Sequence record: MN871446.1
Length of the DNA stretch: 64,000 nt
From: Klebsiella phage KpLz-2_45
Direction: 5' to 3' (one strand)
Of the stretch, positions 2,181-51,206 are shown piece by piece (positions within the stretch are counted from its first letter, which is position 1; the number at the start of each line of letters is the position of its first letter). The position numbers were made by a program, and so were the translations under genes. Under the pieces are notes generated by a model. The model did not search any database. It was not told the DNA's origin and was given only the letters and a program-made list of their open reading frames with translations.

Positions 2181-2203
2181 GTGTAGAGATGTTGTCTCTA
2201 CAC
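2181..2203. other. perfect 9-bp inverted repeat (GTGTAGAGA-TGTTG-TCTCTACAC) adjacent to promoter motif 1; no U-tract
   Basis: Read directly; sits in the 5' leader of gene 1298-2104. Confidence 0.5.
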
Positions 2204-2207
2204 TAGA

Positions 2208-2218
2208 GTGATATAGAC
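2208..2218 (-). promoter_or_regulatory. conserved promoter-like motif copy 1 (GTGATATAGAC core)
   Basis: One of 8 near-identical intergenic copies; upstream of gene 1298-2104. Confidence 0.5.
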
Positions 2219-2219
2219 G

Positions 2220-2771
2220 TTAACCAGATTGGGTTTCGGTATCCTTTACGTAAATACCCGTTTCTACATCTAGTGTAAAACCCACGACCTCCAGATTAAC
2301 CCGCTCATTACCTTCGGCTGTAATCTTGAAACGTGCATTACAAGTCTCAATGTTAACTTCCCCGTCGACGCAGATAAATGCATCATCGATCAGCCCCGGT
2401 ATATCGATTTCAGTCCCGTTGACTAAATCGAATACTCGGAAGTTATACGTCGTATTCTGAGTGGGGCGAAAACGCGGGTACTGAACAACGACGTGACCTG
2501 AACTTTCGAGTTCACCATCTTCGTTAAATTTAGTGTAACGGATGAGCACTTTGTCCACCGCAAAATTTGACAGTGTACGTATTTGCATATCGGTGAATGT
2601 TAACTCCCCGCTAGCAGCCGCCAAACCAACCAAATTAAACCCGACGTCAGAGTTTGCTTTAAAGAACACTTGTCCTTCTGCCTCAGGAATTCCGGTAACA
2701 AAATACTCTTGGTTTTCTTTGATGATCTTAAACTGCATTTTCTTAATATCGGTAAACATAGCTTTGTCCAC
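2220..2771 (-). CDS. hypothetical protein (GTG start)
   Basis: 183-aa ORF; AGGA SD before the GTG start. Confidence 0.5.
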   Translation of the reverse strand: MDKAMFTDIKKMQFKIIKENQEYFVTGIPEAEGQVFFKANSDVGFNLVGLAAASGELTFTDMQIRTLSNFAVDKVLIRYTKFNEDGELESSGHVVVQYPRFRPTQNTTYNFRVFDLVNGTEIDIPGLIDDAFICVDGEVNIETCNARFKITAEGNERVNLEVVGFTLDVETGIYVKDTETQSG

Positions 2772-2779
2772 TTAATATC

Positions 2780-3211
2780 CTATTCGATGTTGCTGTATTG
2801 ATCACCCACCCATACTACGGGCGTTAATAGTCCTCGACCGATTTCCTGCTCGCGGTCTTTTTGTTTGTCTTCGTCGGAAAAACCGTCGATGCGCATGAGT
2901 TGATGAGGTCGAAAGGCAGCATTAAAATAAGTACCCCCTGAATCTAAGAAAGATTCTGCTAATCCCTTAAAGCATCCACCAACTAACCCCCAATGAAATT
3001 CCACATAGGACCGAACTTTACCATTAACCATCCAAACTTCCCGTCCCGAGATAACTTCTGCAACATTCTCTAATCCATTTTCGTTAACGGTGACTTGAAG
3101 CATATTTCCTGGCGAAATACTAACGCCAAGAATGACTTCTTTCCCGACATTTTCTGGATTTTTAGAGTCTCGGATGACTATTGCCCGACAACCGGGTTCT
3201 AAAGGTTTCAT
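2780..3211 (-). CDS. hypothetical protein
   Basis: 143-aa ORF; strong SD (AGGGGAAAG) before ATG. Confidence 0.5.
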   Translation of the reverse strand: MKPLEPGCRAIVIRDSKNPENVGKEVILGVSISPGNMLQVTVNENGLENVAEVISGREVWMVNGKVRSYVEFHWGLVGGCFKGLAESFLDSGGTYFNAAFRPHQLMRIDGFSDEDKQKDREQEIGRGLLTPVVWVGDQYSNIE

Positions 3212-3588
3212 TTATCTTTCCCCTGCACAAGGAAATATTCACGTATTCCCTCAGCTAATGGACCAAAGTCAGAAACCAACTGTAATAGGGATAATTGGTC
3301 ATCAGTCTGTCGCAGCCTTTCGAGCCCTATATGAGGAGGCTTCAGACCGACAGTAGAGAGCTCTAGTTTACCGAGGTATATCTTTGTCTGCCCTCGATCG
3401 AGGAACGCATGAAATGACAATTCCGGTCCAGTGGCAAGGATCATCCCGTCGAAGGGATTCTTTCCGTTATAAACACTCCCCCTTTGAAAGTGGAAAGCTG
3501 CTGCTACTTTCTCTCCCTCTCCTAATTCTTTTTGGCAATGTTTCAACCAACGTTCAGTGAGTTCCGCTTCTTTGAATTTGAATTCCAT
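3208..3588 (-). CDS. hypothetical protein
   Basis: 126-aa ORF; ATGA overlap with downstream gene; AGGAG SD. Confidence 0.5.
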   Translation of the reverse strand: MEFKFKEAELTERWLKHCQKELGEGEKVAAAFHFQRGSVYNGKNPFDGMILATGPELSFHAFLDRGQTKIYLGKLELSTVGLKPPHIGLERLRQTDDQLSLLQLVSDFGPLAEGIREYFLVQGKDK

Positions 3589-3607
3589 TTTGTACTCCTA
3601 TAATCAA

Positions 3608-3639
3608 AATAAAAAGTATAGGGGATTTCTCCCCTATAC
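3608..3639 (-). terminator. rho-independent terminator
   Basis: GTATAGGGGA-TTTC-TCCCCTATAC stem followed by a U-tract on the minus strand, after gene 3659-5350. Confidence 0.6.
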
Positions 3640-3658
3640 CGGCCTTATGTTCCCAAAC

Positions 3659-5350: not shown

Positions 5351-5402
5351 TCTTTTATCCTTTACAGTGAAATAGGTTCTATTCAAACAAATGAGAAGAG
5401 GT

Positions 5403-5915
5403 TTATTTTCGGAACAGCGAGAAGAAACGTTTAAAAAGACTCGGTTTCTTCTCTTCTGGAATAATGTTTTTCTCTACCTCAACCGCTTCAGTACTTTCTT
5501 CTGTGGCCCCTACATTCTTAAACCGTTTTTCGGTCATTGACCGGGTCAGGTACTCATTGCCGAGATAAACGTTTTTATTGCGAATAAAGTCACGGAAACT
5601 TTCTTGTGCTTCTACTGCTCGTCCTTTACTGTCGTAATAAACCCTATAGTTTCTGACACTGTTGTTATCGACGCCTTGTAATTGGATCGTGTAACCCTCA
5701 CCCGCTTCATTGATTTCGTCGGTAACCAGGTTTAAACACCTGGACGGAATAACAAACGTCGCGCTGTCCCCTAAGATTTCCAGTCCTTGGCCGTTATCAA
5801 CAATCACCCAATAGCGGGCACTAAATGTTTTCAGCATTTTGTCAAACGGGAGCGGAAGGAGACCCTCAACAGAACCCGTCTCGTTGGGAGTATCACTTTT
5901 AAACTCAGTTTTCAT
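5403..5915 (-). CDS. hypothetical protein
   Basis: 170-aa ORF; GGAG SD. Confidence 0.5.
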   Translation of the reverse strand: MKTEFKSDTPNETGSVEGLLPLPFDKMLKTFSARYWVIVDNGQGLEILGDSATFVIPSRCLNLVTDEINEAGEGYTIQLQGVDNNSVRNYRVYYDSKGRAVEAQESFRDFIRNKNVYLGNEYLTRSMTEKRFKNVGATEESTEAVEVEKNIIPEEKKPSLFKRFFSLFRK

Positions 5916-6273: not shown

Positions 6274-6275
6274 TT

Positions 6276-6581: not shown

Positions 6582-6644
6582 ACCATATCTCCTTATTAAA
6601 AGTACATAGAAGCTCTCCTGAGGCTTTCGCCTCAGGAGACAATA

Positions 6645-7713: not shown

Positions 7714-7720
7714 TTCAATG

Positions 7721-8575: not shown

Positions 8576-8898
8576 TCGGTAAAGGTAATCGAAAAAGTTC
8601 CTTCGTTGCGATGCCAGTTAACCAGGAAGGGTAACCCTATTTCTTTTAAGATCTCGTTCAGAGCACTTGCAGGAGTTTCTTGTTGACTTCTCCCGAAAAA
8701 GGGATTAGCGATGGTATTTTGTAGCTCCCAGAAACGGTTACCGTTTTTCCGCTTCTTAGAGAAGCGTTTTCGAGACGTGACGGGTTGTTTCAGATAGAGA
8801 TGCAAAGGGCCTTTGTTACTCTGAACCACCACTAAACGTACAAACTGTTCGCTGTAACGTAACTCACCAAACAAAATGTCTTTGATTTTCTTTAGCAT
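8572..8898 (-). CDS. hypothetical protein
   Basis: 108-aa ORF; 4-nt overlap. Confidence 0.45.
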   Translation of the reverse strand: MLKKIKDILFGELRYSEQFVRLVVVQSNKGPLHLYLKQPVTSRKRFSKKRKNGNRFWELQNTIANPFFGRSQQETPASALNEILKEIGLPFLVNWHRNEGTFSITFTD

Positions 8899-9125
8899 TC
8901 GTTTAAATCTCCAGTAATCATCGTGGTTAGATTCCTGACTTTATTCAGGGTCGCAATGTCTTTTTCGACCGAGGCCACCGGGATGTTGTAAAAGAAAGCG
9001 ATCTCTTCTACTCGCATACCATGATTGGCAGCGTTCTCCATCGTTCGGGCGATCTGCGGATTTTCGAGTTGTGACATCAGTTCGTCAAACTCGGCCAGGT
9101 AAGCCAGATATTTGTCACGTTGCAT
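8892..9125 (-). CDS. small helix-turn-helix protein (sigma-70 region-4 / LuxR-like HTH)
   Basis: 77 aa; MRVEEIAFFYNIPVASVEKDIATL resembles a region-4 type HTH. Paralogous to the next gene. Confidence 0.45.
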   Translation of the reverse strand: MQRDKYLAYLAEFDELMSQLENPQIARTMENAANHGMRVEEIAFFYNIPVASVEKDIATLNKVRNLTTMITGDLNEC

Positions 9126-9157
9126 CCTTAGGTACCTTTTTACTGTGGCGGGTCAAA

Positions 9158-9457
9158 CTACTCATCGTACCCTTCTAATAGCGGGCTATGTCCGTTTTTA
9201 GAGATCCAAGCCTCCGCTAACTTATCAGATTTTTTCATAATCTCGGTGGCCTCGGTATAAATTTTAATATCATGATCGACATCATCTACCGGAACAGAAA
9301 AAGCGGCGGCAATGGTCTCGTCGTCTAAACCGTTTTCTCGGAACTGAATAAAGTAATGAGGTAAGTCAGTCCCGTGGTGTCTCGCGGTAAAAAGTTGATC
9401 GTATCCTTTCATCCAAAGTTGATGGATTTCCATTTCTTCCTGTTTTTCTTTTGTCAT
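9158..9457 (-). CDS. small HTH protein, paralog of 8892-9125
   Basis: 99 aa; LDDETIAAAFSVPVDDVDHDIKIY aligns with the HTH of the neighbouring gene. Confidence 0.45.
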   Translation of the reverse strand: MTKEKQEEMEIHQLWMKGYDQLFTARHHGTDLPHYFIQFRENGLDDETIAAAFSVPVDDVDHDIKIYTEATEIMKKSDKLAEAWISKNGHSPLLEGYDE

Positions 9458-12460: not shown

Positions 12461-12794
12461 GTTTTCTTACCTTAACTAAGGGAACATTAATCGATTTAAC
12501 GTTGTTGATTTTATAGCGCTGATTAGAAACCCCAAAGGAGCGTACTCGGATTCCAGTCTCTCCGACAAAACGTAGGTGAGAAAGATCAGAGAGCAAAGTA
12601 ACAAAGTCTCTTTTGGTTATTCGGCTCCATCCCAGAATAGCAACGGCGTTTTCCCCGACCAAACTCTCGATACAGATTTGAACAGGGTGGGTGTTAGGGG
12701 CGGCCAGAGACCGCCCCTCAATGACTGATTCTAACCAATTGCTAAGAGGAGTAGATTCCTCTAACGTGGGGATACGGTATTCTTTAACTGCCAT
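12453..12794 (-). CDS. hypothetical protein (ATG start; track gives a TTG at 12806)
   Basis: ATG 11 nt before the upstream stop. Confidence 0.45.
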   Translation of the reverse strand: MAVKEYRIPTLEESTPLSNWLESVIEGRSLAAPNTHPVQICIESLVGENAVAILGWSRITKRDFVTLLSDLSHLRFVGETGIRVRSFGVSNQRYKINNVKSINVPLVKVRKHA

Positions 12795-13284
12795 AGCTGT
12801 TCTCAAAGCGGAAGAAAGAACCCTCGATGGAGACCATCACCTTGCTTTCCGCAGGGTACAATTCGTCTAAGGCATCTGCCATCACTTTCTCAATATCGAT
12901 GTCGCCCCTCACACACGGACAAATACCGCCAGTGATTTCTTTAGTGGCGGTCGAGTCAAGCGTGAGCTTCATGACAAGGTCACAGTCAGCATCGACACAC
13001 GCCATGACACTGACGTTGTCTCTTTCATAGTCCAACTGGAAGCGGTAGTTATCATTGCCTGAATTATGGATACGGAATTCCTCAGGGATTTCCCCCGTCT
13101 TGTTACATTTCTCAAGAAGCGAAAGGACAAGATTGACGTGTTCTTTGACTAAATGAACAACGTTGTTTTTCATTTTCTCTACGGCTTCTTTTTGTCCTTT
13201 AACATGGGACATAATCGCTTTGAAAGCGACGTCAGAAGAAACAAAGGTTTTTAAAACTGCAGCAGAACGAAATTCAGTGGACAT
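12784..13284 (-). CDS. hypothetical Cys-rich protein
   Basis: 166 aa; first gene after promoter motif #2. Confidence 0.5.
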   Translation of the reverse strand: MSTEFRSAAVLKTFVSSDVAFKAIMSHVKGQKEAVEKMKNNVVHLVKEHVNLVLSLLEKCNKTGEIPEEFRIHNSGNDNYRFQLDYERDNVSVMACVDADCDLVMKLTLDSTATKEITGGICPCVRGDIDIEKVMADALDELYPAESKVMVSIEGSFFRFENSYGS

Positions 13285-13340
13285 TTTTTATCTCCGTGTT
13301 AAGTACAAACTATTTAAAGACCAAGTAATTTTTGTTACCT

Positions 13341-13367
13341 TCACTCAAGTGATATAGGCTTTAAAAC
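13341..13367 (-). promoter_or_regulatory. conserved promoter-like motif copy 2 (TTCACTCAAGTGATATAGGCTTTAAAAC)
   Basis: Immediately after terminator 13376-13409 and 60 nt upstream of gene 12784-13284. Confidence 0.55.
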
Positions 13368-13375
13368 GAATCGAA

Positions 13376-13409
13376 ACAAAAAAAAAGAAAGAGGGAATGA
13401 CCCCTCTTT
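13376..13409 (-). terminator. rho-independent terminator
   Basis: GAAAGAGGG-AATGAC-CCCTCTTTC followed by T9 on the minus strand, after the AAA ATPase gene. Confidence 0.7.
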
Positions 13410-13421
13410 CTTTTATTAGCC

Positions 13422-14738
13422 TTAGTTCAGAGAACGCCCTGTTTGAACGACGACTTCGCCTTCTTTCAGGTAGATTTTCTTGCGTGGCTTACGCAGCGCC
13501 GTTGCCAGCGGGATATCGCTTTTAGGAACGACATCAAACTTCGGTAAACCCGCAGCAGCGCGGGCTTCAACAGCCTCCATCGGAGTCAGCATACGGAAGT
13601 GTAACGGCTCGCCAAGATAGTGACGGCCATCGCGCATCAGTGCTGGTTCGATTTTTGATTTGTCGGTCAGGTTAGTGGTAATAATGATTTTACGCGTGGT
13701 GGCGCTCCCTACACCATCAGTTTCGTTCAGCAATTCTGACATCATCGTGTTACCGTCAGCACGCGGACGTAAGAGGATATCCCCATCTTCCACAATCACG
13801 ATTGGGAAGGTAGGCTCTTTACGGGTTTTCGCATCGTGGCTGTTTGGCAGCGTCAGCATATTACGGGTATTTTCAAAATGCGAACGGTCTTTGAAAAGTT
13901 CATAACGCGCATTTTCACCACTGGAGATTTCAACCCTTTCCATTTTGTCGTCGCTGAACGCGAAGATCTTAGAGATGAATTCTGGGTTTTCGAGGACCTC
14001 AGTTTTCTTCGCGTAGATCGGGAAAAGGTTCAGCGCCACGCAGGCAGCGGAAATGGCGGTCGATTTCCCGGTGCCCGGTTCGCCCATGAGAATCAGAACC
14101 GATTCATCAGACTGAATAAAGTCTTCGATGAGCGCTTCCACACCGCCGTTCAGGAACGGATAGAACTCCTTCTTCGTTTCGCCGCTATGACGCATGACTC
14201 TAGGTTCAAGGTGAGTCATTTCACCCATTGGCGTTTTCCGAATAACGACTTCAGAATAATAAAATTCCTCTTTCGTTTCGTCAGTACGGTGATCGATTTT
14301 GATATTTTCTTGGATCTGAATCAACAGATCGTCGTAGATATCTTTCGCCATCATACCTTCGATAGAGAGGTTAGACCTAATGTCGCTTTGAACGCGGATA
14401 CAGGCGATCGGACGATTGTATTTATCCAGTCCGATGAACTGGTCATCGTCGTGCTGGAAGAAGCGATGTTTTTCCAGGAACGCAGTTAACCACTGCGTGG
14501 ATTCGAAGTAGTATTTATTCTGATCGAACATTCGATCGGTATCGATGTTGAAGATAGGGAGTCGATTTGCAGTCAGGAAATGACGTACCATTTTATTGAC
14601 ACGAATTTCTTCCTCGTTATTGCCTACGAAACGTGCGTAGCTCCCGTAAGCTTCGCCGAACGATTCGAAGATATCATTCAGTGATTTAATAGGTGCGTTA
14701 TCAGAGAGAGATCCAGAGAAAAAAGCGTGCTTGTCCAT
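13422..14738 (-). CDS. AAA+ ATPase (classic AAA/BCS1-like clade) with an N-terminal ~220-aa domain of unknown function
   Basis: Walker A GEPGTGKST, Walker B IVIVEDGD, LLNETDG second region of homology, PALMRDGR arginine finger; AAGGAA SD. Confidence 0.8.
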   Translation of the reverse strand: MDKHAFFSGSLSDNAPIKSLNDIFESFGEAYGSYARFVGNNEEEIRVNKMVRHFLTANRLPIFNIDTDRMFDQNKYYFESTQWLTAFLEKHRFFQHDDDQFIGLDKYNRPIACIRVQSDIRSNLSIEGMMAKDIYDDLLIQIQENIKIDHRTDETKEEFYYSEVVIRKTPMGEMTHLEPRVMRHSGETKKEFYPFLNGGVEALIEDFIQSDESVLILMGEPGTGKSTAISAACVALNLFPIYAKKTEVLENPEFISKIFAFSDDKMERVEISSGENARYELFKDRSHFENTRNMLTLPNSHDAKTRKEPTFPIVIVEDGDILLRPRADGNTMMSELLNETDGVGSATTRKIIITTNLTDKSKIEPALMRDGRHYLGEPLHFRMLTPMEAVEARAAAGLPKFDVVPKSDIPLATALRKPRKKIYLKEGEVVVQTGRSLN

Positions 14739-14780
14739 TTAAAGTTCCTTAACGTTGTTTGTATCAGGGTGGGTTTATTT

Positions 14781-14807
14781 CAATAACGTGATATAGATCT
14801 TAAAACT
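14781..14807 (-). promoter_or_regulatory. conserved promoter-like motif copy 3
   Basis: Between hairpin 14822-14845 and the AAA ATPase gene start. Confidence 0.55.
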
Positions 14808-14821
14808 TTTAGAAAACAGGA

Positions 14822-14845
14822 GAGAGGAGGCGTTTGCCTCCTCTC
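14822..14845 (-). terminator. terminator-like hairpin
   Basis: GAGAGGAGGC-GTTT-GCCTCCTCTC, T-rich downstream. Confidence 0.5.
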
Positions 14846-17878: not shown

Positions 17879-18380
17879 TTCGCAATTTCCTTCCTATCAA
17901 TTCTATTTCATCCAACAAGGGTTTCAACGTATAAAGACCCTCGATCGCTTCTAGTGGGTTATCCGCCCGTAATCGAGACACGGTTTCGCGGTGACGTTCA
18001 AACCACTCAGCGTCGGTCTCAGGAACTTCTAGTATCTCCCACCACCTCGCTTCCGATTTCTTTTTCTTCCCGAAACGTTTTCCTTCGTGAAGTTGAACCT
18101 CTTGAACAACAAACCGGCCTCTTCCGGTGGTGATCTCTTCAGGTTCACCAATAGGGGAATACTCTTCAGTAATACTCCCTACCCATTTCTCTTTGAAGTT
18201 TATTTCCCAACGGCATTTACTCCCCCAGGCAAAATAAATCCCCGTGGTTTCGATCAGTAAGACTTTACCGTTTTCGGATGCGAATGAGGCCGCCGGAGAA
18301 ATTCCACGACGGTAAAGCGTTCGATTACCAACAATTAACATTTTACCGTGTTCGCTAGAGACGAAAGAGGCCAGAATCAT
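17868..18380 (-). CDS. hypothetical protein (TAATG-coupled ATG; track extends to 18404)
   Basis: GAGGAAAA SD before the ATG at 18380. Confidence 0.5.
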   Translation of the reverse strand: MILASFVSSEHGKMLIVGNRTLYRRGISPAASFASENGKVLLIETTGIYFAWGSKCRWEINFKEKWVGSITEEYSPIGEPEEITTGRGRFVVQEVQLHEGKRFGKKKKSEARWWEILEVPETDAEWFERHRETVSRLRADNPLEAIEGLYTLKPLLDEIELIGRKLRNAE

Positions 18381-18625
18381 TATTTCATTTTCCTCAGGTT
18401 CCATTGCACGATAATTTCTTCGTATTTCTCAATGGCCGTTTCTTGGTCATGAAATACCAACCAACCCATCTTGCTTGGGTTAGACGTATAGAGCAGCCCA
18501 ATTGAAGGTTTAGCGCCGCCCCAGTTTGTATTGAGTTTTGAAATAGGCGGAGTAACATGTACCAATTCGCCAAAGTCAATGACATGATCGTTGATAATAA
18601 CACTTTTAATTTCTTCGTCGGTCAC
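18380..18625 (-). CDS. hypothetical protein
   Basis: 81 aa; first gene after promoter motif #4. Confidence 0.4.
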   Translation of the reverse strand: MTDEEIKSVIINDHVIDFGELVHVTPPISKLNTNWGGAKPSIGLLYTSNPSKMGWLVFHDQETAIEKYEEIIVQWNLRKMK

Positions 18626-18662
18626 GGTAGGAACTCCTTATAAACGATTTTGTTTACGTTCT

Positions 18663-18689
18663 TTCACTAGGGTGATATAGGTGTGAAAC
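18663..18689 (-). promoter_or_regulatory. conserved promoter-like motif copy 4
   Basis: After hairpin 18683-18705, upstream of gene 18380-18625. Confidence 0.55.
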
Positions 18690-18721
18690 AGGGTCGAGTT
18701 GACCCTGTTCCCATAGTACGT

Positions 18722-20101
18722 TTAACTTACAGCTTTTAAGACGTTATAACTTACTGCTTCGACAGGTTTAGTGACGTCGTACGTCCGTAGCGCGTTTTCA
18801 TAGGCTACCGGGTCATGTTTGTTCAGCATGAAAAGCGCTTGAACAGATGCACCTGGTAAAGGAGAGAAAGGAAGGTTATTACTAGGTTCCGTATCAGGGA
18901 ATGCCATTTTGAAGAACTGACGAATTTCTTTATCGCCTAATACTTCTACTTCAGCCCTGACGTCTATTCTCCCGTCCCGCAGCAGCGCATCGTCAAGTTT
19001 CTCAGGGCGGTTAGTCGTCAGGAAAACGATAACATCATTCAACCGCAAGACGCCGTCTAACGCGTTGAGGAAATCTGACAAGCTACCGTTTAGGTACTCG
19101 TCCATTGCTTTATCGTCAGAACTTTGTTCTTCAACGACGAAAGGGGTATTTTTGAGTTCTTCTGGGTTTTCCGGTTTGTTTCCCTCTTTTAAGTCAATGA
19201 TAACCTTTTCTTTACTCCGCGCTTTCGTGAACGAATACGTATCAATATCCTCGATAATCACAACCCCGCCAGCTGCTCGTTGGAAAAGCGCTTGGTATTG
19301 TAATCCACCGGCGGGTTTGAGGATATGAATATCGCGCCCTAACGCGGCCGCTAATGCCGAAATCAAACTGCTCTTTCCGGTGCCTGGTAAACCGTATAAC
19401 AACACTGTGAACTTATAAGCCAGTCCTCGTGATTCGTACCAGTCTTTACTCTTATTAAAATCGAAGATAGGGTCGATTAACTCGCGCTGGACTTTATCCG
19501 TAACGACTATGGTTTTAAGGTCTCTTTTCTTCAGTCGGCACAAATAATTCCAACTGTCGGTAGTATTGACAAATGTCCGTATGTTGTCTTTACCCGTGTC
19601 TTTCAGCATAAACTCATCCATCAGGTTTAAGATAGGTTTATGGCTGCGACCGAATTTACTAATGCTAAGACGGTATTTCGAATTACTCGCAGCGTTAGCA
19701 TCAATTTCCGTGATAGAGAAAACAAACACAGTGCCCTTATGAAGAAAGAAATGTGACCCCACACCAGGCCCCACTGCGGCGGACTCTCCATTCACGTCGC
19801 CATCAATAGTTATCGTCCTACTCCAATGGAACCAGCTATTCTTAGCAAACCATTTCAGGAACGCCCCGTATTGTTCGGAGTTATAATTACTCCAGTTGGT
19901 TCCTGAGGTGTTAAAGACCAAACTGGTAACAAATTGACGTTTGACCCATTGTACTACCGCCTTGGGCGTTTTGATTAACCCCCAACCAATCGCCCCTGAT
20001 ACCGCGATAGAGCTCGCGGCGACAATCGCGTTCTGTGCCATGGGGTAGTCTTTAAAGTTAGAAAGAATATGGTCGTAAAATGACATTAGTTGTTCGAGCA
20101 T
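18722..20101 (-). CDS. BCS1-like AAA+ ATPase with N-terminal membrane anchor
   Basis: TM helix at residues ~20-45, then LLYGLPGTGKSS (Walker A), VVIIEDID (Walker B), LLNALDG, TTNRPEKLDDALLRDGR. Organisation is like the BCS1 family. Confidence 0.8.
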   Translation of the reverse strand: MLEQLMSFYDHILSNFKDYPMAQNAIVAASSIAVSGAIGWGLIKTPKAVVQWVKRQFVTSLVFNTSGTNWSNYNSEQYGAFLKWFAKNSWFHWSRTITIDGDVNGESAAVGPGVGSHFFLHKGTVFVFSITEIDANAASNSKYRLSISKFGRSHKPILNLMDEFMLKDTGKDNIRTFVNTTDSWNYLCRLKKRDLKTIVVTDKVQRELIDPIFDFNKSKDWYESRGLAYKFTVLLYGLPGTGKSSLISALAAALGRDIHILKPAGGLQYQALFQRAAGGVVIIEDIDTYSFTKARSKEKVIIDLKEGNKPENPEELKNTPFVVEEQSSDDKAMDEYLNGSLSDFLNALDGVLRLNDVIVFLTTNRPEKLDDALLRDGRIDVRAEVEVLGDKEIRQFFKMAFPDTEPSNNLPFSPLPGASVQALFMLNKHDPVAYENALRTYDVTKPVEAVSYNVLKAVS

Positions 20102-30121: not shown

Positions 30122-30827
30122 TTTTAACCTCGTTATACGCGTTGTTTACTGCCACCAACGTTTTGCTCACCGCCTCATTGTCTGGGAGAGTAAGCGGCCA
30201 GCTGGGGTGCATGTTGATGTAATATTCGTTCTCGCCAGGAGCGAAGACGATAAAGAATGTATGGTCAGCGTTCACTTCCGCAGAGAGCCGATTAATGGCG
30301 ATATTGTAATAGACCCGACACCCTGCTTTCTCTCCGACTGCCTTTAGTTTGTCTGGGTTGATTAATGGGTTGTTTAAGAAGGACTCAACTGTCCCTTTAA
30401 ACGGGAGAATATTCATTTCGCCGTTAGAGGAATCCGTCGGGCCGCGATACAGTTTAACGGCATCCTGACAATACTCTTCTACCCGATCGCAATACGTCGC
30501 AATCAACGCTTCAGGTACTGCCGAGAGTTTGTCGGTGAGTTTATCAATCAGTACCGCGGTATCGGCTTCATCTGACCGGACCATGATCATCGGAAACCAT
30601 TTATTCAGCAGACAGAAGAAACGGGGGTCTACGCCGTGATTAACGAGGTAAGAAACGAATTCACTGGTAGCGATCCCTGCCACCCAGCCGTAGGGCTTAA
30701 AGGTACCCGGAGGAGCCCAATCTTCATCAGACCAAAATTTACGGAGATAAAATTCGTCCCGTTTAAGACGTTGGATGAAGAAAGTGAACTCTGGTTTATG
30801 ATTCAGAAAACGTTCGATGAAATCCAT
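30111..30827 (-). CDS. hypothetical protein
   Basis: 238 aa. Confidence 0.5.
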   Translation of the reverse strand: MDFIERFLNHKPEFTFFIQRLKRDEFYLRKFWSDEDWAPPGTFKPYGWVAGIATSEFVSYLVNHGVDPRFFCLLNKWFPMIMVRSDEADTAVLIDKLTDKLSAVPEALIATYCDRVEEYCQDAVKLYRGPTDSSNGEMNILPFKGTVESFLNNPLINPDKLKAVGEKAGCRVYYNIAINRLSAEVNADHTFFIVFAPGENEYYINMHPSWPLTLPDNEAVSKTLVAVNNAYNEVKNAQ

Positions 30828-31276
30828 TATTTATCCTCGAGGTGAAAACGAATTTTAAAGACGGGATAATCAGTGATCTCGTCTTCATTGAGTAAAAGGA
30901 TGCGAATAGCTTTGATATTAAAGCCGAAAATCAATTTGAAATCTATAGCCTGCTCTTCACAATACGTAGTGCGACAGACATTATTCGAAATGAGATCGTT
31001 ATCGGGATTAACAAACAAACAATTCTCCGGCAATTGACAGTCTACCCCACGATAGCAAATCGATAGAATCTCTAGACGGGTTATTTTTCTGTCGACAGGA
31101 AGTTGGTCTCTAAGCTTGTAAATCTTGTCTTTATCAACGATGAGATCAGCGTAGTCGAGTTTAGGTCCGAATAGGTTAAGGGTTATTTCTTCATTCAACA
31201 GTCTATTGATCTCGAAAACTTTTACTTTATCAGAAATATCCCTTTTCAAGATTTCTTTAATTTTTTCGATGGACAT
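30827..31276 (-). CDS. hypothetical protein
   Basis: 149 aa; AAAGGAG SD; first gene after promoter motif #5. Confidence 0.5.
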   Translation of the reverse strand: MSIEKIKEILKRDISDKVKVFEINRLLNEEITLNLFGPKLDYADLIVDKDKIYKLRDQLPVDRKITRLEILSICYRGVDCQLPENCLFVNPDNDLISNNVCRTTYCEEQAIDFKLIFGFNIKAIRILLLNEDEITDYPVFKIRFHLEDK

Positions 31277-31300
31277 TTATTTCTCCTTTTATTTTTCCTC

Positions 31301-31328
31301 TACATCTAAGTGATATAGACTTGAAAAC
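31301..31328 (-). promoter_or_regulatory. conserved promoter-like motif copy 5
   Basis: After terminator 31358-31385, upstream of gene 30827-31276. Confidence 0.55.
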
Positions 31329-31357
31329 AAATCCAAAAGAAAAAGAGAACATAGAAC

Positions 31358-31385
31358 CTTCCTCTCTCCCGAAGGAGAGAGGAAG
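31358..31385 (-). terminator. terminator-like hairpin
   Basis: CTTCCTCTCTCC-CGAA-GGAGAGAGGAAG, T-rich tract downstream. Confidence 0.55.
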
Positions 31386-31392: not shown

Positions 31393-31797
31393 CTATAGTT
31401 GCTGACCCATGGCCGCCGCTACAATCACTGCAACGAAGATCGAAACAATGCCGGAGAGAATGTACCAGACAAACCACAGGCGGGAGTTACCGTTGCGATT
31501 CTGGCGCTTATAGACATAAACCGGAGAGAGCAGCCACCACCAACCCGATGGGACAAAGGCCCCTTCTTTCTTCAGCATTTCACGGTCGGTGATGAACCAA
31601 CCCGTAAACAGTATCAGTGAGATCAGCCAGCCGATGGTTGGTAAGGCGACCTGAATCGCAGTGAAGATCGGCTGTGAGAAAATGATGAAAAGCATGAAGA
31701 ACGGCGTCATCAGCTGAGGCTTAGTGCCTTTCTTGAAGAAAGTGTAACCGTTCGCGTTTTGGTATTGGATTTCTGTTTCAATAGTGTTCTGGGACAT
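31393..31797 (-). CDS. polytopic membrane protein
   Basis: 134 aa, four hydrophobic segments; first gene after promoter motif #6. Confidence 0.5.
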   Translation of the reverse strand: MSQNTIETEIQYQNANGYTFFKKGTKPQLMTPFFMLFIIFSQPIFTAIQVALPTIGWLISLILFTGWFITDREMLKKEGAFVPSGWWWLLSPVYVYKRQNRNGNSRLWFVWYILSGIVSIFVAVIVAAAMGQQL

Positions 31798-31862
31798 TTT
31801 ATTACTCGCTTAGTTAAAGGTTGTTGTTAAATGATTTTAAAGTGACTTATCTGTCGTATATG

Positions 31863-31887
31863 CAATCAAGTGATATAGATGTTAAAT
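31863..31887 (-). promoter_or_regulatory. conserved promoter-like motif copy 6
   Basis: Overlaps the stop of 31882-32433; upstream of membrane protein gene 31393-31797. Confidence 0.5.
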
Positions 31888-32433
31888 GATTTCGATATTG
31901 AAGGCGGGTTCGGGGATGCCTTTAAAAGCGCATTCGTTACTGACGAGTTCACTCAGACCACCGCCGATATAAACATCTTTAAGTCCGCGTTTGCTATAAG
32001 TACGTTTGCCGATGGGACTTTCTGCGGAGCAATCGTTCCGGAAAAGAAGATAAATTCTTTGCCCATCAAAATCGGTGTAGATTGAATAATCAGTAACGTC
32101 TTCTTGTTCGCCAGGTTCAGCAAAACAAAAATCAATAACGTTCGCGGAGAGTAGCCAGAAAAACCGAAGGTATTCCCGTAACAGATCGATATGAATAACA
32201 GAGAACTCGCCGCCTTTGTTAATTTTTTCTATCAGCTCTTTAACCGGAACTTCAGAAGAGGGCGAACCAACACCGTGAAGATCTCCCAGAATTTCCCACG
32301 CTGGATCGTTATCCCGTTGAACAAAAAGAAACTCTCCACTTTTCTCGTCATACATCACTGATGCCAACTCGGATTCGAGAAGTTTTAACCCTGCACGGTA
32401 ATTCTCAATTAAAGAAGTTTCTGTGTTTTCCAT
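31882..32433 (-). CDS. hypothetical protein
   Basis: 183 aa. Confidence 0.5.
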   Translation of the reverse strand: MENTETSLIENYRAGLKLLESELASVMYDEKSGEFLFVQRDNDPAWEILGDLHGVGSPSSEVPVKELIEKINKGGEFSVIHIDLLREYLRFFWLLSANVIDFCFAEPGEQEDVTDYSIYTDFDGQRIYLLFRNDCSAESPIGKRTYSKRGLKDVYIGGGLSELVSNECAFKGIPEPAFNIEII

Positions 32434-32862
32434 TTAAAATACCTCTATTTGCAAAAAGTTTTGATGTGGATTGACTTCTAGTTCAAACTGAACATCGTCA
32501 TCTGAGATGTAACTCCCAAGATCAATTTTCTCAAAGAAAAATCGATAGATCGTTGGCCACCCGCAATAAACATCGATATGCTGAGAGAACTTCTCAAAGA
32601 CCTCGTATAACCTATCTGGGTTGTCAGTAGGCGGGGGATCCTCAGCGCTGTCTGGGTAACAGGGCTCGATAAATTGGTGGTAGGCTTGCTCTGAAAACGC
32701 CTGATGTAAAATTTTCCCAGCATACTTTGAATCTGCGTTTTCAGCGGTAAGAATGACCGCCCAGAAAAGGGCTGTCATGACGTAAATGCGGTCATCAGGA
32801 TCCTTGATCTTCCGCAAACCCATCGAGAGTCTCTCCGGAATCCCCAAAATGAACGTTCCCAT
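32434..32862 (-). CDS. hypothetical protein
   Basis: 142 aa; strong AAAGGAAAAAG SD; overlaps the 3' end of the upstream gene by 68 nt. Confidence 0.45.
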   Translation of the reverse strand: MGTFILGIPERLSMGLRKIKDPDDRIYVMTALFWAVILTAENADSKYAGKILHQAFSEQAYHQFIEPCYPDSAEDPPPTDNPDRLYEVFEKFSQHIDVYCGWPTIYRFFFEKIDLGSYISDDDVQFELEVNPHQNFLQIEVF

Positions 32863-37227: not shown

Positions 37228-37917
37228 TTATTTGTTGGTTTTGGTGATATACCACTTCCAAAGGCCGTAGAAAGCATTCATCAAGAATACTGCCCACTGT
37301 GCCACCTGCGCCCATGAACCCGGTTGATTAAGCGCCGGGATCACCCACAGATAAATCGTGACGCAGTTGATAATGATCCAGAGAATCCATTGTTCTGGCT
37401 GCTGCTTGATCATCATCCACATGGCGATGAGCGATGCGACTAAGCAGAACGCGTCTAATGCAGGAAACGGATCCTGCGTAGTTTTCAGGTATTCGGTCAG
37501 GCCATACCAGAAGATAACCCCAACAACCAGATAAGTTATCACGTCACGTAAAGTGATCGTTTTAACCGCTACGTCAGCTTTGGCTGGAGTTTTGCCCAGG
37601 TCTTTCGTCCAGTAATAAATACCGATAAACTGCATGGGAAGGTAAATAGCGTTCAACGCCGCATTGGCATAAAGGCCGGTATTGTACGAAACAATACCGT
37701 AGGTAATTACGCCAATCGTCCCCCAGTAATAATTAGAGACGCGACCCTTCGCCACCAGAATCACGCAGACGACGTTAGTCAGCGCTGCCGTGAATTCTAA
37801 CGGACTGGCTTGCCAGCTCCCTAATCCGACGACGATTAACGCTACGATCAGCCAAAAGTATTCGACTTTCTTCCAGTGCGCAAAGTCAGTGAAAGTTTTC
37901 ATTACCAATGAGTTCAT
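37228..37917 (-). CDS. pnuC: nicotinamide riboside transporter PnuC
   Basis: 229 aa. Collinear with E. coli PnuC: multi-TM profile, WxxVE, NVVCVILVAKG, IYYW, ILWIIIN-type conserved stretches. AAGGA SD. Confidence 0.85.
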   Translation of the reverse strand: MNSLVMKTFTDFAHWKKVEYFWLIVALIVVGLGSWQASPLEFTAALTNVVCVILVAKGRVSNYYWGTIGVITYGIVSYNTGLYANAALNAIYLPMQFIGIYYWTKDLGKTPAKADVAVKTITLRDVITYLVVGVIFWYGLTEYLKTTQDPFPALDAFCLVASLIAMWMMIKQQPEQWILWIIINCVTIYLWVIPALNQPGSWAQVAQWAVFLMNAFYGLWKWYITKTNK

Positions 37918-42175: not shown

Positions 42176-42458
42176 TAAGATTCTTCCTCAAGGAAAGTTT
42201 CTGTCCCAGTTTGAGGGTGCGGATCGGAAGTTCGATTGACCCACACGCATTGGCGATAATGGTTCCTGTCGGTGTTCCGACCACCGCAGTGAATTCATCG
42301 GGATGTTTCTCAATCAACCCGATGCTGGCGGAGAACAGATCTTCATCGCGCGCGAGTAGATGTAAATCAGTTTCACTTACGATGTCGCCGATGTAAGGGT
42401 AATTTGGATTGCGGTCATAGGCGACAGTTGGAGACTGCTTGACTTTCTTTGCCGACAT
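42168..42458 (-). CDS. hypothetical protein
   Basis: 96 aa; 8-nt overlap. Confidence 0.45.
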   Translation of the reverse strand: MSAKKVKQSPTVAYDRNPNYPYIGDIVSETDLHLLARDEDLFSASIGLIEKHPDEFTAVVGTPTGTIIANACGSIELPIRTLKLGQKLSLRKNLND

Positions 42459-42886
42459 TATTCCTTCCCTCCGGAGATAACCGAAAATGGGTTTGGTTTC
42501 TTAGTTTCTTTTACCGGTTCAGCGGGTTCGTCAGAACGCCCGTCAGCAGTGATGAGTTTTTGCGGGAGTTGAATCATCTGTTCCGGGTTATCAGGGTTAA
42601 ACATCTGAATGACGGACCCCCACGGGAAAGTGTCTGAGGCGAGTTTACCCCCGAAACGCCCTTCGAAGAACAACCCTTCGTCCAGTGAAGAAAGCTGACA
42701 GGAATGCGGAGAAACATTCAGTGTCAATACGTGATAACCCTGCATGTTAGGTACCGGTTTGACATATTGACGAAGAATGGGATTCACGGTGATTTCGGTA
42801 CCAAAGACCGTGATGTAAATACGACTGCCATTATCGATAAGCCAGCTATAACCTGCATCAAACAACGCTTTATTTAAAGAAGACAT
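42458..42886 (-). CDS. hypothetical protein
   Basis: 142 aa; first gene after promoter motif #7. Confidence 0.5.
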   Translation of the reverse strand: MSSLNKALFDAGYSWLIDNGSRIYITVFGTEITVNPILRQYVKPVPNMQGYHVLTLNVSPHSCQLSSLDEGLFFEGRFGGKLASDTFPWGSVIQMFNPDNPEQMIQLPQKLITADGRSDEPAEPVKETKKPNPFSVISGGKE

Positions 42887-42915
42887 GTGTTACTCCCGAT
42901 TGTTATTTAATTACC

Positions 42916-42943
42916 TTCACTCAGGTGATATAGATTTTAAAAG
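42916..42943 (-). promoter_or_regulatory. conserved promoter-like motif copy 7
   Basis: Overlaps the stop of 42917-43411; upstream of 42458-42886. Confidence 0.5.
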
Positions 42944-43411
42944 CCGTCGAGTTTCTTCCCAAAACTCCACTAACCATTCTCCGCTTTTAGGCGTAACAAC
43001 TTTAACGTCGTCTTCCCAGACACGCGCCCCTTTCTCCATTCGCCAATTACCGAAAACGTAGTAATGGGTAAAAGGTAGGGTTGAATTGACCAGCGCTTGG
43101 TATTGGTGTTTGTAAGTATTCAATTTCGCCAGATTAGCAGCTTTGATAATCGAGAGGAAATCGGGATGATGAACCACTTCCAGTTTCTTCCCAAATGCTT
43201 TCGCCTCGTTACCGTACAAGCCTCTGAGGTATTGGTGTTTAAAACCGGTTTTTGCGTAATACCAAAACCCTTCCATACTTTCAAAGTTTCCGTACTCAGG
43301 GTGAATGAAAGGTGTCTTTGGAAAGTGAGAGAGAAAGAACCCGAGACGGTTCTTGGACTTAGAGTAAATGTTGATGTGGTCAATACCGTCATTGTTTGGG
43401 TTCAAAGTCAT
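42917..43411 (-). CDS. hypothetical protein; possible NADAR (YbiA/DUF1768-like) ADP-ribose-processing domain (tentative)
   Basis: 164 aa. INIYSKS..LGFFLSHFP and EGFWYYAKTGF loosely parallel YbiA INFYS..YGDFSNFA and EHYFQAQKF. C-terminal LVEFWEETRRLL parallels LGYLLMELREQL. By-eye similarity only. Confidence 0.45.
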   Translation of the reverse strand: MTLNPNNDGIDHINIYSKSKNRLGFFLSHFPKTPFIHPEYGNFESMEGFWYYAKTGFKHQYLRGLYGNEAKAFGKKLEVVHHPDFLSIIKAANLAKLNTYKHQYQALVNSTLPFTHYYVFGNWRMEKGARVWEDDVKVVTPKSGEWLVEFWEETRRLLKSISPE

Positions 43412-44312: not shown

Positions 44313-44728
44313 ACCGTTATCCCCTGTTGAATGAGAAAACCGACAGAAAAAAGAAACCCTGCTAATAACATTCCCGCCGCCATTTGTAATAATGGACTTT
44401 GATTGAAAACGGCTTTAAACCGGTTCCATCGGGTATTATAGAAGTCTATTTCAAATCCTGCGATGACACGATCATTTAAACGCCCTGCTTCTTTTTCTGC
44501 ACCTTCTTTAAAACGATAAGCGAATAATTCCTGACAACCTAATGCATCGGCTAGGTTTCCGTTCGGCCCTGGGTAACACAACGGAAGTTCATTAGAAGAA
44601 ATGACTGCGCCGTTGATATTCACGACAACCCAACTCCCCTTTGCGTCAGGGTGTTCAATCGCTCGAAAGAATTTTCTTTCGATGTAATAAAATTGAGGGC
44701 CCGAAGGCCCTCTTTTATTTTTTTCCAA
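44300..44728 (-). CDS. C-terminally membrane-anchored protein, paralog family B
   Basis: 142 aa; ELPLCYPGPNG...RLNDRV and a C-terminal TM. Confidence 0.5.
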   Translation of the reverse strand: MEKNKRGPSGPQFYYIERKFFRAIEHPDAKGSWVVVNINGAVISSNELPLCYPGPNGNLADALGCQELFAYRFKEGAEKEAGRLNDRVIAGFEIDFYNTRWNRFKAVFNQSPLLQMAAGMLLAGFLFSVGFLIQQGITVWWK

Positions 44729-47507: not shown

Positions 47508-47523
47508 TTTAAATTCGCCCCAG

Positions 47524-49584: not shown

Positions 49585-49658
49585 TATACGGGGCGGTTAA
49601 AGTACGAGTCATAGAAAGGTTTTGGGACAAAAAAGAAAAGCGCGAGAAGGAGACAACA

Positions 49659-49686
49659 GGAGAAGAGAGCAGACGCTCTCTTCTCC
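49659..49686 (-). terminator. terminator-like hairpin after the acidic-protein gene
   Basis: GGAGAAGAGAGC-AGAC-GCTCTCTTCTCC 12-bp stem. Confidence 0.5.
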
Positions 49687-49692
49687 TGGGAA

Positions 49693-50100
49693 TTATTCAT
49701 CGTCTTCGAAGTCTTCCGGTACAGATTGGTAATCGTCATCGTCGTAGTCGTCCCAATCCTCTTCCTCGCTGTCGTCAAGTTCATCGATGATCTTGTTGTC
49801 AGCTTCTTCCATGAACCAGCCTTTCTCAGCCAGTGTAGCAGCAAAGACGTTGTTCCCTTCTTCGATCAGCGTTTCGGTCACCGCCCCTGAGTCATTCTCA
49901 GTAACGGCAACCACCGTGAGTTCTTCGCCGTCAGCGGTCTTATCGTTGACATCCGTTTTATAGAGTTCAAACCCTAACTGTTCGTTGACACTTTCTAATG
50001 TTTCAGAAAGGTCGAGTGGGTCAACCGGACGGCCGTCGTTGTCGATGACTTCGAAAGTCTCTTCGTCGGTACTGAATTTCAGGATAGTGCGATTTGTCAT
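49693..50100 (-). CDS. highly acidic protein (C-terminal DDSEEEDWDDYDDDDYQSVPEDFEDDE)
   Basis: 135 aa, >30% Asp+Glu; ATGA-coupled; own terminator hairpin downstream. Confidence 0.5.
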   Translation of the reverse strand: MTNRTILKFSTDEETFEVIDNDGRPVDPLDLSETLESVNEQLGFELYKTDVNDKTADGEELTVVAVTENDSGAVTETLIEEGNNVFAATLAEKGWFMEEADNKIIDELDDSEEEDWDDYDDDDYQSVPEDFEDDE

Positions 50101-50426
50101 TTCCAGTCCTCCTGGGTGCGTTTAATAAAGAGTGCGTCAACGACAGTCAGATCGACAGGGATCAGCTCAGTCGCCGCATGGGGTTGTATAAAGTAAAGCG
50201 TCAGAGTTGTGTCGTTGGTGAGTTTTCCAACCACGTTGTAAAGAACACCGTTGTACATTCCGGATGTGCCGGTTTTCAGATTGAGTGCAACAATGAGTTG
50301 TCGTCCCAGTAAATCGCAGTTGTTACCAGGGTAAGTGTCGCGGAGTTTAAAGAGTACTCGACCCACCTTTTCTTGCCATTCTTTCATTAACACATTGAGA
50401 ATCGTTTCTCTTGTAATAACCTGCAT
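50097..50426 (-). CDS. hypothetical protein (ATG at 50426 with AAGGAAG SD; track extends to a TTG at 50534)
   Basis: Shorter start leaves a plausible 120-nt divergent intergenic region. Confidence 0.45.
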   Translation of the reverse strand: MQVITRETILNVLMKEWQEKVGRVLFKLRDTYPGNNCDLLGRQLIVALNLKTGTSGMYNGVLYNVVGKLTNDTTLTLYFIQPHAATELIPVDLTVVDALFIKRTQEDWK

Positions 50427-50547
50427 CTTGTCTTCCTTATTGGTCGTTATCATAGAAAGTTTACTTAAAAATAGATTTGGGGTAGTCAAGAAAAACAGGC
50501 GGTATATTGCTATGTTAACACCTAAAATGAACAAGGCATAAGTAGCG

Positions 50548-50760
50548 ATGAACTATTCAATCATTCCCACCACAGCGCAAAAGATTGTTGAGATTACCCG
50601 CAGTAAAATTGACCCGAATGCGGTCACGCTCATTTTCGAAGACGGGGCAAACGAAACATTTCTGGATTGGTTTGTCCAGAAACATAAACCAGCAATCGGT
50701 CGTTTTCTGGCCAAAGACACCGACGGTTTCCTGCACGTAGTAGACACGATCGACGCTTAA
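50548..50760 (+). CDS. hypothetical protein. It is the only plus-strand gene in the window.
   Basis: 70 aa; convergent with 50800-51045 across a shared bidirectional terminator hairpin. Confidence 0.5.
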   Translation: MNYSIIPTTAQKIVEITRSKIDPNAVTLIFEDGANETFLDWFVQKHKPAIGRFLAKDTDGFLHVVDTIDA

Positions 50761-50769
50761 AAGAACACA

Positions 50770-50800
50770 GAAAGGAAAGGGGTTAGTCCCCTTTCCTTTC
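50770..50800. terminator. bidirectional terminator between convergent genes
   Basis: GAAAGGAAAGGGG-TTAGT-CCCCTTTCCTTTC 13-bp stem between the plus gene 50548-50760 and the minus gene 50800-51045. Confidence 0.6.
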
Positions 50801-51045
50801 TAGTCTATATTGTTTTTCAGGATGTCTTCGGCAGGGTAGAAATGATCTTCTACGATTTTACCGAATTGATGGGCGCCAGTGAGTGCGTTTTCTACGGGGG
50901 TGATGTAAGCGGCTTTATTGTCCCACGGCGGGAGAAGCTCTGAGAGCAACAGTGCGGCTTCGTTTAATAAAGCTAGGTTCTCGTCAGGGACGAATGATAT
51001 TGTCTCTTGTAGGCTCTCTAAGAGCGCTATACGGGGAGTAAACAT
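50800..51045 (-). CDS. hypothetical protein
   Basis: 81 aa; AAGGG SD; first gene after promoter motif #8. Confidence 0.45.
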   Translation of the reverse strand: MFTPRIALLESLQETISFVPDENLALLNEAALLLSELLPPWDNKAAYITPVENALTGAHQFGKIVEDHFYPAEDILKNNID

Positions 51046-51178
51046 AGTTGACCCTTAAAGGTGAAATAAGACAGGGACCGAAGTCCCTGAACTTATAAAT
51101 TAAAATGAATGTCTCGTTATTAACCGGCACTGTGAGAAACGGTTAAATAGGAGTAATCGGAGGGTGTCTTATTTCCTC

Positions 51179-51206
51179 TTCACACTTGTAATATAGATGT
51201 GAAAAA
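51179..51206 (-). promoter_or_regulatory. conserved promoter-like motif copy 8 (GTAATATAGAT variant)
   Basis: In the 170-nt gap after the tailspike gene 51216-52943, upstream of 50800-51045. Confidence 0.5.

Follow-up and report, generated by a model that had tools for sequence, protein, structure and literature searches.

Candidate early promoters of a phiKZ-like Klebsiella jumbo phage, probably read by the virion RNA polymerase

Introduction

A 64,000-nucleotide (nt) stretch of DNA from Klebsiella phage KpLz-2_45 (record MN871446.1), which we call the window, contains eight copies of an AT-rich motif. An earlier note, made from the sequence alone, described the motif as a phage-specific promoter of about 27 nt recognised by a phage-encoded or phage-modified RNA polymerase (RNAP) factor. 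Here we ask what kind of element this is and which polymerase reads it. Our analysis suggests that the eight copies serve as early promoters in a phiKZ-like (Chimalliviridae) jumbo phage of Klebsiella and are read by the virion RNA polymerase (vRNAP); we estimate the probability of this interpretation at about 0.87. Elements of this kind are well known, and no description for this Klebsiella clade was found in the literature. Two papers on phiKp24 do not mention promoters, and at least one of them does not mention RNAP either.

Results

Structure of the motif

The core of the motif is GTGATATAGA on the plus strand, or TCTATATCAC on the minus (coding) strand. The pattern YCTATATYAC has exactly eight matches in the window, at the positions given in the earlier note (Table 1), compared to 0.37 expected, and none of 100 shuffled sequences reached eight. 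All copies are on the minus strand, as are all credible open reading frames (ORFs) of the window, and thus the claimed orientation towards minus-strand genes holds. Allowing one mismatch to GTGATATAGA yields 11 matches, with 2.97 expected. The one-mismatch cores at 19710, 39307 and 35279, as well as a TATATCAC match at 37244, lie inside ORFs, lack the flanking elements described below and fail the full matrix. They were rejected as chance matches.

A position weight matrix (PWM) of 38 nt was built from strict-core copies in the whole genome of the related phage KpXa_1 (see below) and refined once; the threshold was set at 8 bits. In the window it finds exactly the eight sites, with scores of 33-47 bits. 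The element is thus longer than had been thought, about 38 nt, the addition being a T-C-n-A block approximately 12 nt upstream of the core. It is also asymmetric. On the coding strand it consists of T-C-n-A, five variable nucleotides, TTTnA, two or three nucleotides, YCTATATCAC, nnnA(G/T), TG and aA. The information content peaks at TTTnA and T-C-n-A, that is, there are extra blocks at -20 (T-rich) and -30. Genome-wide, the bases six and seven nucleotides past the core are T in 27 of 27 sites and G in 26 of 27. If this G is counted as +1, the core occupies positions -16 to -7, TTTnA approximately -24 to -20, and T-C-n-A approximately -32 to -29. This constant spacing between the core and the T and G, at offsets +6 and +7, is a property of the sequence, and the 5' ends derived from it are predicted ones. 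The AT-rich block of about 10 nt is present as YCTATATYAC in 8/8 window copies and as nTATATYRC-type cores in 27-29 sites of the genome. Most cores are TATATCAC, with C at about -9; TATATTAC is found at 51188 and in a few other sites. No similarity between the flanks of the copies was seen beyond the motif itself.

The earlier note pointed to an inverted element, TCAC...GTGA, in the motif. Indeed, five of the eight window copies contain TCAC/TTAC-N4-GTG(A/T), and small ORFs resembling helix-turn-helix (HTH) proteins were noted at 8892-9457. One possibility is therefore an operator of a dimeric regulator (TCAC-N4-GTGA), or an element acting at the RNA level, such as a processing site or a 5' structure. 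However, this inverted element is not constant: of 27 sites in the genome only 11 have the G that completes GTGA, against 27 and 26 for the adjacent T and G. Three different blocks in an asymmetric order, and the location of 29/29 sites on one strand, are unexpected for a symmetric operator. A four-base-pair (bp) stem with a 4-nt loop would be unstable as an RNA structure, and the predicted transcript would not include the most conserved bases, which are upstream of it. Both the dimeric operator and the RNA hairpin were rejected, since the palindrome is incomplete in most copies, and we find this explanation scarcely credible. The palindrome arises incidentally where TCAC, at the end of the -10 block, is followed by GTGA, the start-site block, and does not represent a dimer-binding site.

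Genome-wide distribution

A genome-wide scan, as the earlier note proposed, was made in KpXa_1 and in an annotated relative. The strict core occurs in KpXa_1 12 times, on one strand throughout. The matrix finds 29 sites scoring at least 8 bits, 29 on the plus strand and none on the other, whereas the maxima in ten shuffled 304-kilobase (kb) genomes were 6.2-12.6 bits. In the annotated genome of Klebsiella phage vB_kp_MJ359 (hereafter MJ359), all 28 of 28 plus-strand matches are located 41-152 nt upstream of plus-strand coding sequences (CDSs). The genes served include that of the nuclear shell protein (site 53356, gene 53437) and the pair 098/099 of the non-virion RNAP (nvRNAP; site 66821, gene 66911), as well as genes for an AAA ATPase, an SspB-like protein and many small hypothetical proteins. 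The matrix scan of MJ359 detected no site upstream of its minus-strand genes, which are mostly structural. For early promoters of phiKZ-like phages one would look for about 30-40 copies per genome, all on one strand, upstream of the genes for chimallin (the shell protein) and nvRNAP and absent from structural genes; 27-29 copies are observed in this arrangement.

In the window, the 38-nt matrix scan found no copy in the tailspike block at 51.2-64 kb. This agrees with the earlier suggestion of a single non-late temporal class that excludes the tailspike genes; the in-register match to early consensus sequences, described below, points in the same direction. An AAA ATPase gene was correctly listed among the downstream genes (promoter 3 in Table 1).

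MJ359 has an additional, weaker copy (25.9 bits) at 245130, before gene 269 (212 amino acids, aa). It corresponds to the window near 32434. The window has no counterpart of this copy, and its ORF there (31882-32433, 183 aa) is different.

The source genome and its polymerases

The window is 99.6% identical to 'Serratia phage KpXa_1' (MN871449, 304,264 bp, unannotated, host Klebsiella pneumoniae) and about 95% identical to the annotated Klebsiella phages LPKP23 and MJ359. Approximately 78% identity, over part of the region only, was observed with vB_KpM_FBKp24 (hereafter FBKp24) and Centimanus, both of the genus Maaswegvirus, family Chimalliviridae. KpXa_1 and the other MN8714xx records are unannotated genomes of about 300 kb that were deposited as 'Serratia phage ... 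UNVERIFIED_ORG', yet Klebsiella pneumoniae is their host. Judged by chimallin (80% aa identity) and by DNA identity, the classified phages most closely related to them are those of Maaswegvirus.

The MJ359 record annotates PhuZ tubulin, the nuclear shell protein and several 'RNA polymerase beta subunit' genes. No sigma factor is among its annotations. Searches of the MJ359 proteins with PHROG profiles identified chimallin (9e-45), PhuZ (4e-82) and seven RNAP beta/beta' pieces (9e-63 down to 0). Two of the MJ359 RNAP pieces match solved chains of the phiKZ nvRNAP, PHIKZ071 (gp71, 4e-77) and PHIKZ055 (gp55, 3.5e-65). A beta-like protein of 1495 aa, flanked by virion-protein genes, matches bacterial beta alone, and weakly; because of this it was assigned to a second RNAP set. 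MJ359 genes 209/210 are located among virion-protein genes. Chimallin, PhuZ and the RNAP pieces are 99.7-100% conserved in KpXa_1. The genome thus encodes two sets of split beta/beta' multisubunit RNAP genes and the hallmark nucleus genes. Given chimallin, PhuZ, both RNAP sets and the identity to relatives, the window is, by homology, part of a phiKZ-like nucleus-forming jumbo phage with two multisubunit RNA polymerases of its own.

Comparison with known early promoters

The early promoters of the RNAP-encoding jumbo phages examined are recognisable by a conserved AT-rich motif centred near -10 and are read by the injected virion RNAP (PMC7598289). PhiKZ has 28-32 early promoters with an extended -10 block and a T-rich block upstream of -19 (PMC8244752, PMC10914365). 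Its shell (chimallin) gene PHIKZ054 has an experimentally mapped early promoter and, in addition, a middle promoter (PMC8244752). Conservation at -10, -20 and -30 is known for early promoters of 201phi2-1 and phiKZ (PMC11512511; PMC8244752). Early promoters of Bacillus phage AR9 have the form AAATATATATTAT-(6N)-G+1, and transcription of phiKZ and phiR1-37 is mentioned in the same paper as starting 6 nt past the consensus (PMC5312081). The phiKZ consensus and start-site spacing used here are those quoted in later papers citing the original phiKZ transcriptome study.

The published consensus sequences (PMC7058600, Table 2) are TBYAWWWWWTTTCARRYAKATATTATYWAAGTGWA for N1M2, BSHAWWWWWTTTYARRYAKATATTATYWWADTG for OBP, ...TTTRARR_BTATATTACDWHDGTG for 201phi2-1 and, as quoted there, TATATTAC for phiKZ. 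Such strings, in IUPAC code, served as independent probes on KpXa_1, with expected counts covering both strands. The N1M2 probe (at most 8 mismatches) has 13 matches on the coding strand and 0 on the other, with 0.6 expected; the OBP probe (at most 7 mismatches) has 19 and 0, with 4 expected; and the 201phi2-1 probe (at most 4 mismatches) has 13 and 0, with 1 expected. Nearly all matches fall on matrix sites, and there the offset to the core is fixed.

The promoters of N1M2 and OBP agree with the element in all four blocks and in their spacing over 33-35 nt: T-B-Y-A, 5 nt, TTTyA, 4-5 nt, an ATATTAT-type core, 4 nt and GTG. N1M2 has 31 copies, compared to 27-29 here. However, the spacer past the -30 block is not restricted to A and T here, the core has C-A-C in place of T-A-T, and individual matches carry 4-8 mismatches to the IUPAC strings. 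With 201phi2-1 (TTTRARR-BTATATTAC-DWHD-GTG; PMC11512511) the element shares the tripartite -10/-20/-30 structure and GTG at the start region; in that phage, which has another host and belongs to another genus, six such promoters were captured experimentally. PhiKZ itself is similar in the conserved block of about 10 nt near -10, the T-rich block upstream of -19, the approximately 30 copies per genome on the leading strand, the early operons including the nuclear shell gene, and the two multisubunit RNAPs. It differs in the core, which is mostly TATATCAC here and TATATTAC in the quoted phiKZ consensus, and in that phiKZ starts were mapped whereas ours are predicted. AR9 shares an ATATTAT-type core with a G start after exactly 6 nt, and its promoters were shown to be vRNAP-dependent, as their transcription is insensitive to chloramphenicol (PMC5312081). 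On the other hand, AR9 has uracil DNA, no nucleus, no described -20/-30 blocks and a longer upstream A/T run.

Which polymerase reads the promoters

Within phiKZ-like phages the motif could in principle belong to the middle class and be read by the nvRNAP or a modified form of it. The chimallin gene of phiKZ has promoters of both classes (PMC8244752), and the core found here is one base off the phiKZ-type consensus (PMC7058600). However, the published middle motif is a weak AT-rich/TACT sequence at about -22 to -24 and the late motif is TATG (PMC7598289, PMC8244752), and both differ from our element. With the early consensus, in contrast, the element agrees in register along 27-35 nt, and the 6-nt distance to G+1 is the same. 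Moreover, the motif precedes nvRNAP genes, which the nvRNAP cannot transcribe first. Thus we consider a middle class improbable and infer that the promoters are early.

Another candidate reader is the host RNAP, either with sigma-70 or redirected by a phage sigma or HTH factor. TATATC resembles the first four bases of TATAAT, the site at 42962-42934 scores as a weak sigma-70-like match, and jumbo phages without their own RNAPs encode sigma factors (PMC7598289). However, there is no -35 hexamer at a distance of 16-18 nt, and the T at the last position of the -10 box is missing. Consensus scans for sigma-70 promoters are not enriched in the window (21 sites with 28.4 expected, 34 with 33.4, and 33 with 32.4), leave seven of the eight sites uncalled and coincide with only one; on these grounds a sigma-70 promoter was rejected. 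The genome encodes two RNAP sets and, in the MJ359 annotation, no sigma factor, and phiKZ-type infection is reported to be insensitive to rifampicin (PMC13282480). Transcription of these sites by the host enzyme is thus very improbable. A T4 late promoter was rejected as well: there is no TATAAATA box, and the core is CTATATCAC in all sites. The earlier note was therefore right that the motif matches neither of these types and that it is a phage-specific promoter, whereas a sigma or HTH factor on the host enzyme finds no support; a phage factor of this kind, or a small HTH protein such as those at 8892-9457, is an unlikely reader. By homology, the reader of these promoters is likely to be a complete multisubunit vRNAP injected with the DNA.

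Several observations weigh against an early, vRNAP-read class. The start sites, the timing and the responsible polymerase in this phage rest on homology. Three polypeptides of the second RNAP set were recognised, compared to at least five in the phiKZ vRNAP (PMC13282480), and a literature search for virion proteomics showing packaging of this set found none for the clade. The nvRNAP gene MJ359_140 (103262-104629) has no nearby copy, the nearest being about 10 kb upstream. The core has C where phiKZ, OBP, N1M2 and AR9 have T (TATATCAC compared to TATATTAC/T), and details of recognition may differ accordingly from those in the four phages. Finally, three window sites overlap the 3' end of an upstream ORF, and because of this overlap their conservation in part reflects coding constraint.

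Some nvRNAP subunits without a nearby early promoter have also been reported in 201phi2-1.

Conservation in related phages

Five orthologous sites were aligned between the window phage, MJ359, FBKp24 and Centimanus. Within the motif 73% of the columns are invariant over the four phages, compared to 54% and 50% in the 40-nt flanks. Promoter 4 is retained in MJ359, FBKp24 and Centimanus, whereas the downstream genes are different in the latter two. Promoter 8 is retained in all four phages although the upstream tailspike genes cannot be aligned. At promoter 5, positions -33 to -7 are invariant in the four phages, and the stem of the neighbouring terminator has compensatory substitutions.

The matrix also located this motif ahead of the chimallin genes of Serratia phage Moabite (24 bits), Erwinia phage PhiEaH1 (25 bits) and, as a weak match, Serratia phage PCH45 (14 bits), at distances of 78-129 nt. 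The chimallins of these phages are only 27-37% identical to that of the phage considered here, and the upstream copy has been kept in four genera. The phiKZ chimallin was not recovered by tblastn at 1e-10, being too diverged.

A pattern scan of IMG/VR was also performed, with the -20, -10 and +1 blocks only. The matches listed mix true sites on jumbo contigs with chance ones, and we use them qualitatively. Several of those listed are on contigs of jumbo size, and there the -30 block is present though it lay outside the search pattern. Because they occur in these contigs, among the matches listed, promoters with C at -9 appear to be widespread beyond the cultured Klebsiella phages. Many of the listed contigs of 220-317 kb have a CTATATCAC-type promoter with a TTGCA/TTCAA block at -30.

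Several copies lie where the gene content of relatives differs (upstream of 51188, downstream of 18672, and at MJ359 245130). The copies might hence be scars or boundaries of recombining cassettes, that is, a dispersed repeat with no transcriptional role. However, there are no shared flanks, the conservation varies from position to position as it does in a binding site, and the same architecture is found upstream of chimallin in distant genera. A role as a cassette boundary would in any case add to the promoter function rather than replace it. We give this explanation almost no credence and retain that of early promoters.

Promoters, terminators and hairpins in the window

The coordinates are collected in Table 1. 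The distances from the core to the start codon were claimed to be 40-90 nt; this is true of some sites, and the whole range is 34-143 nt.

Table 1. Candidate promoters, hairpins and a candidate transcript in the window. All features, predicted starts and served ORFs are on the minus strand; the predicted start is the G after the core.
Feature	Position	Core	Predicted start	PWM score	ORF served	Leader (nt)	Core to start codon (nt)	Comment
Promoter 1	2198..2234 (about -33 to +4)	2217-2208	2201	39.2	1298-2104 (268 aa, no Pfam match)	97	104	Upstream half overlaps 3' end of ORF 2220-2771; counterpart in MJ359 at 275162
Promoter 2	13339..13375	13358-13349	13342	46.6	12784-13284 (166 aa)	58	65	
Promoter 3	14778..14814	14797-14788	14781	40.6	13422-14738 (AAA ATPase, Pfam AAA 4.7e-08)	43	50	
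Promoter 4	18662..18698	18681-18672	18665	44.8	18380-18625 (81 aa)	40	47	
Promoter 5	31300..31336	31319-31310	31303	33.3	30827-31276 (149 aa)	27	34	
Promoter 6	31860..31896	31879-31870	31863	40.9	31393-31797 (134 aa)	66	73	Upstream half overlaps 3' end of ORF 31882-32433
Promoter 7	42915..42951	42934-42925	42918	39.5	42458-42886 ('SspB-like' in MJ359)	32	39	Within last codons of ORF 42917-43411; MJ359 core 234113 within CDS 246 (ends 234130)
Promoter 8	51178..51214	51197-51188 (TATATTAC variant)	51181	37.2	50800-51045	136	143	Begins 1 nt past stop codon of tailspike gene 51216-52943
Hairpin at promoter 1	2180..2204							10-bp stem, -13.3 kcal/mol, z = -4.0
Intrinsic terminator of AAA ATPase gene 13422-14738	13383..13414							14-bp stem, then TTTTTGTTTC; adjoins promoter 2 upstream
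Intrinsic terminator upstream of promoter 3	14822..14845							10-bp stem, 7 GC pairs
Hairpin after BCS1-like AAA ATPase gene 18722-20101	18685..18711							11 bp, -18.5 kcal/mol, z = -5.1
Terminator hairpin upstream of promoter 5	31358..31385							12-bp stem
Candidate short early transcript (about 120 nt)	51062..51181							From predicted start of promoter 8 to terminator hairpin, upstream of ORF 50800-51045

Six of the eight copies were said to follow immediately after a terminator hairpin. We found such a hairpin before four, namely promoters 2, 3, 5 and 4, and in the last case the two elements overlap: the loop and the 3' arm of hairpin 18711-18685 contain the -30 (TCGA) and -20 (TTT) blocks of promoter 4. 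The same arrangement is present in FBKp24 and Centimanus, and a terminator is annotated at the orthologous position in the FBKp24 record. The hairpin 2204-2180 is not an upstream terminator, as it lies downstream of the core: it begins 4 nt past the promoter 1 core, where the transcript is predicted to start, and TTTATATC comes after it. It could act as an attenuator or as a stem that stabilises the 5' end. This hairpin is conserved in MJ359.

Both AAA ATPase genes of the window (13422-14738 and 18722-20101) have a terminator and then an early promoter at their 3' side. The second one encodes a BCS1 N-terminal domain (Pfam 1.5e-10), and further 'ATPase' paralogues are present elsewhere in the MJ359 genome. 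Terminator-like sites are enriched across the window (30, 34 and 32 found, about 20 expected). Strong hairpins at 44695-44712, 50768-50802, 57559-57586 and 59835-59865 are terminator-like on both strands and thus bidirectional.

In T4-type phages a terminator hairpin followed by an early promoter, the 'promoter-early stem-loop' (PeSL), occurs between small early genes at points of variable gene content. The terminator-promoter order at four of the eight sites here is analogous. The difference is that PeSL promoters are of the sigma-70 type and are read by the host RNAP.

A candidate short RNA and cassette joints

Promoter 8 may direct a short transcript that ends before the next ORF. The terminator of this candidate consists of the hairpin 51089-51072 and a T-rich tail. 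The stretch 51062-51181 hardly varies between the four phages, and its terminator stem shows compensatory substitutions. It folds with -31.9 kcal/mol (z = -3.7) and contains a conserved 7-bp internal stem, TTAACCG/CGGTTAA. It has no Rfam match, and an exact-match scan of IMG/VR with its core retrieved FBKp24 only, besides chance matches. Short transcripts ended by a terminator just past the start are known from 201phi2-1 (PMC11512511), and the candidate resembles them.

Promoter copies also coincide with mosaic joints. Upstream of promoter 8, the tailspike genes of the relatives defy alignment, and downstream of promoter 4 the two Maaswegvirus phages have different genes. Terminator-promoter units may mark points of cassette exchange. 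We offer these two readings together, an early structured RNA of about 120 nt from promoter 8 and terminator-promoter units as recombination joints, only tentatively, and consider them rather doubtful. If the first is true, the vRNAP would make a small RNA, or a leader with conditional termination, in the first minutes of infection. If the second is true, related jumbo phages would exchange cassettes of early genes, and the tailspike modules next to them, at these joints.

Discussion

The following model of early transcription is consistent with the data. A multisubunit, sigma-less vRNAP would be packaged in the virion and injected with the DNA. It would recognise the tripartite element of about 38 nt, that is, T-C-n-A at -32 to -29, TTTnA at -24 to -20 and YCTATATCAC at -16 to -7, and would begin RNA synthesis at the conserved G, 6 nt past the core. 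In the window this would produce eight minus-strand early units with the starts given in Table 1 and leaders of 27-136 nt; on the upstream side, several of the units are delimited by intrinsic terminators. In other parts of the genome these promoters would drive the chimallin and nvRNAP genes. The nvRNAP would then take over middle and late transcription, including that of the motif-free tailspike genes.

The finding leaves current understanding unchanged. It provides the first map of early transcription units for the clade of KpXa_1, MJ359, LPKP23, FBKp24 and Centimanus, with eight promoters in the window, 27-29 in the genome, and predicted starts. To our knowledge, it has yet to be explained how a multisubunit vRNAP that lacks a sigma factor recognises some 38 nt of DNA. 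The sites described here add a set of natural variation for this problem: C at -9, TG at -1/+1, T-C-n-A at -30, and the cross-genus copies upstream of chimallin. The promoters may be of practical use as orthogonal parts for engineering therapeutic Klebsiella jumbo phages. For the biology of the phage, the small unknown genes at 1-51 kb would be early genes transcribed by the injected polymerase, and they are likely to function in host takeover and anti-defence.

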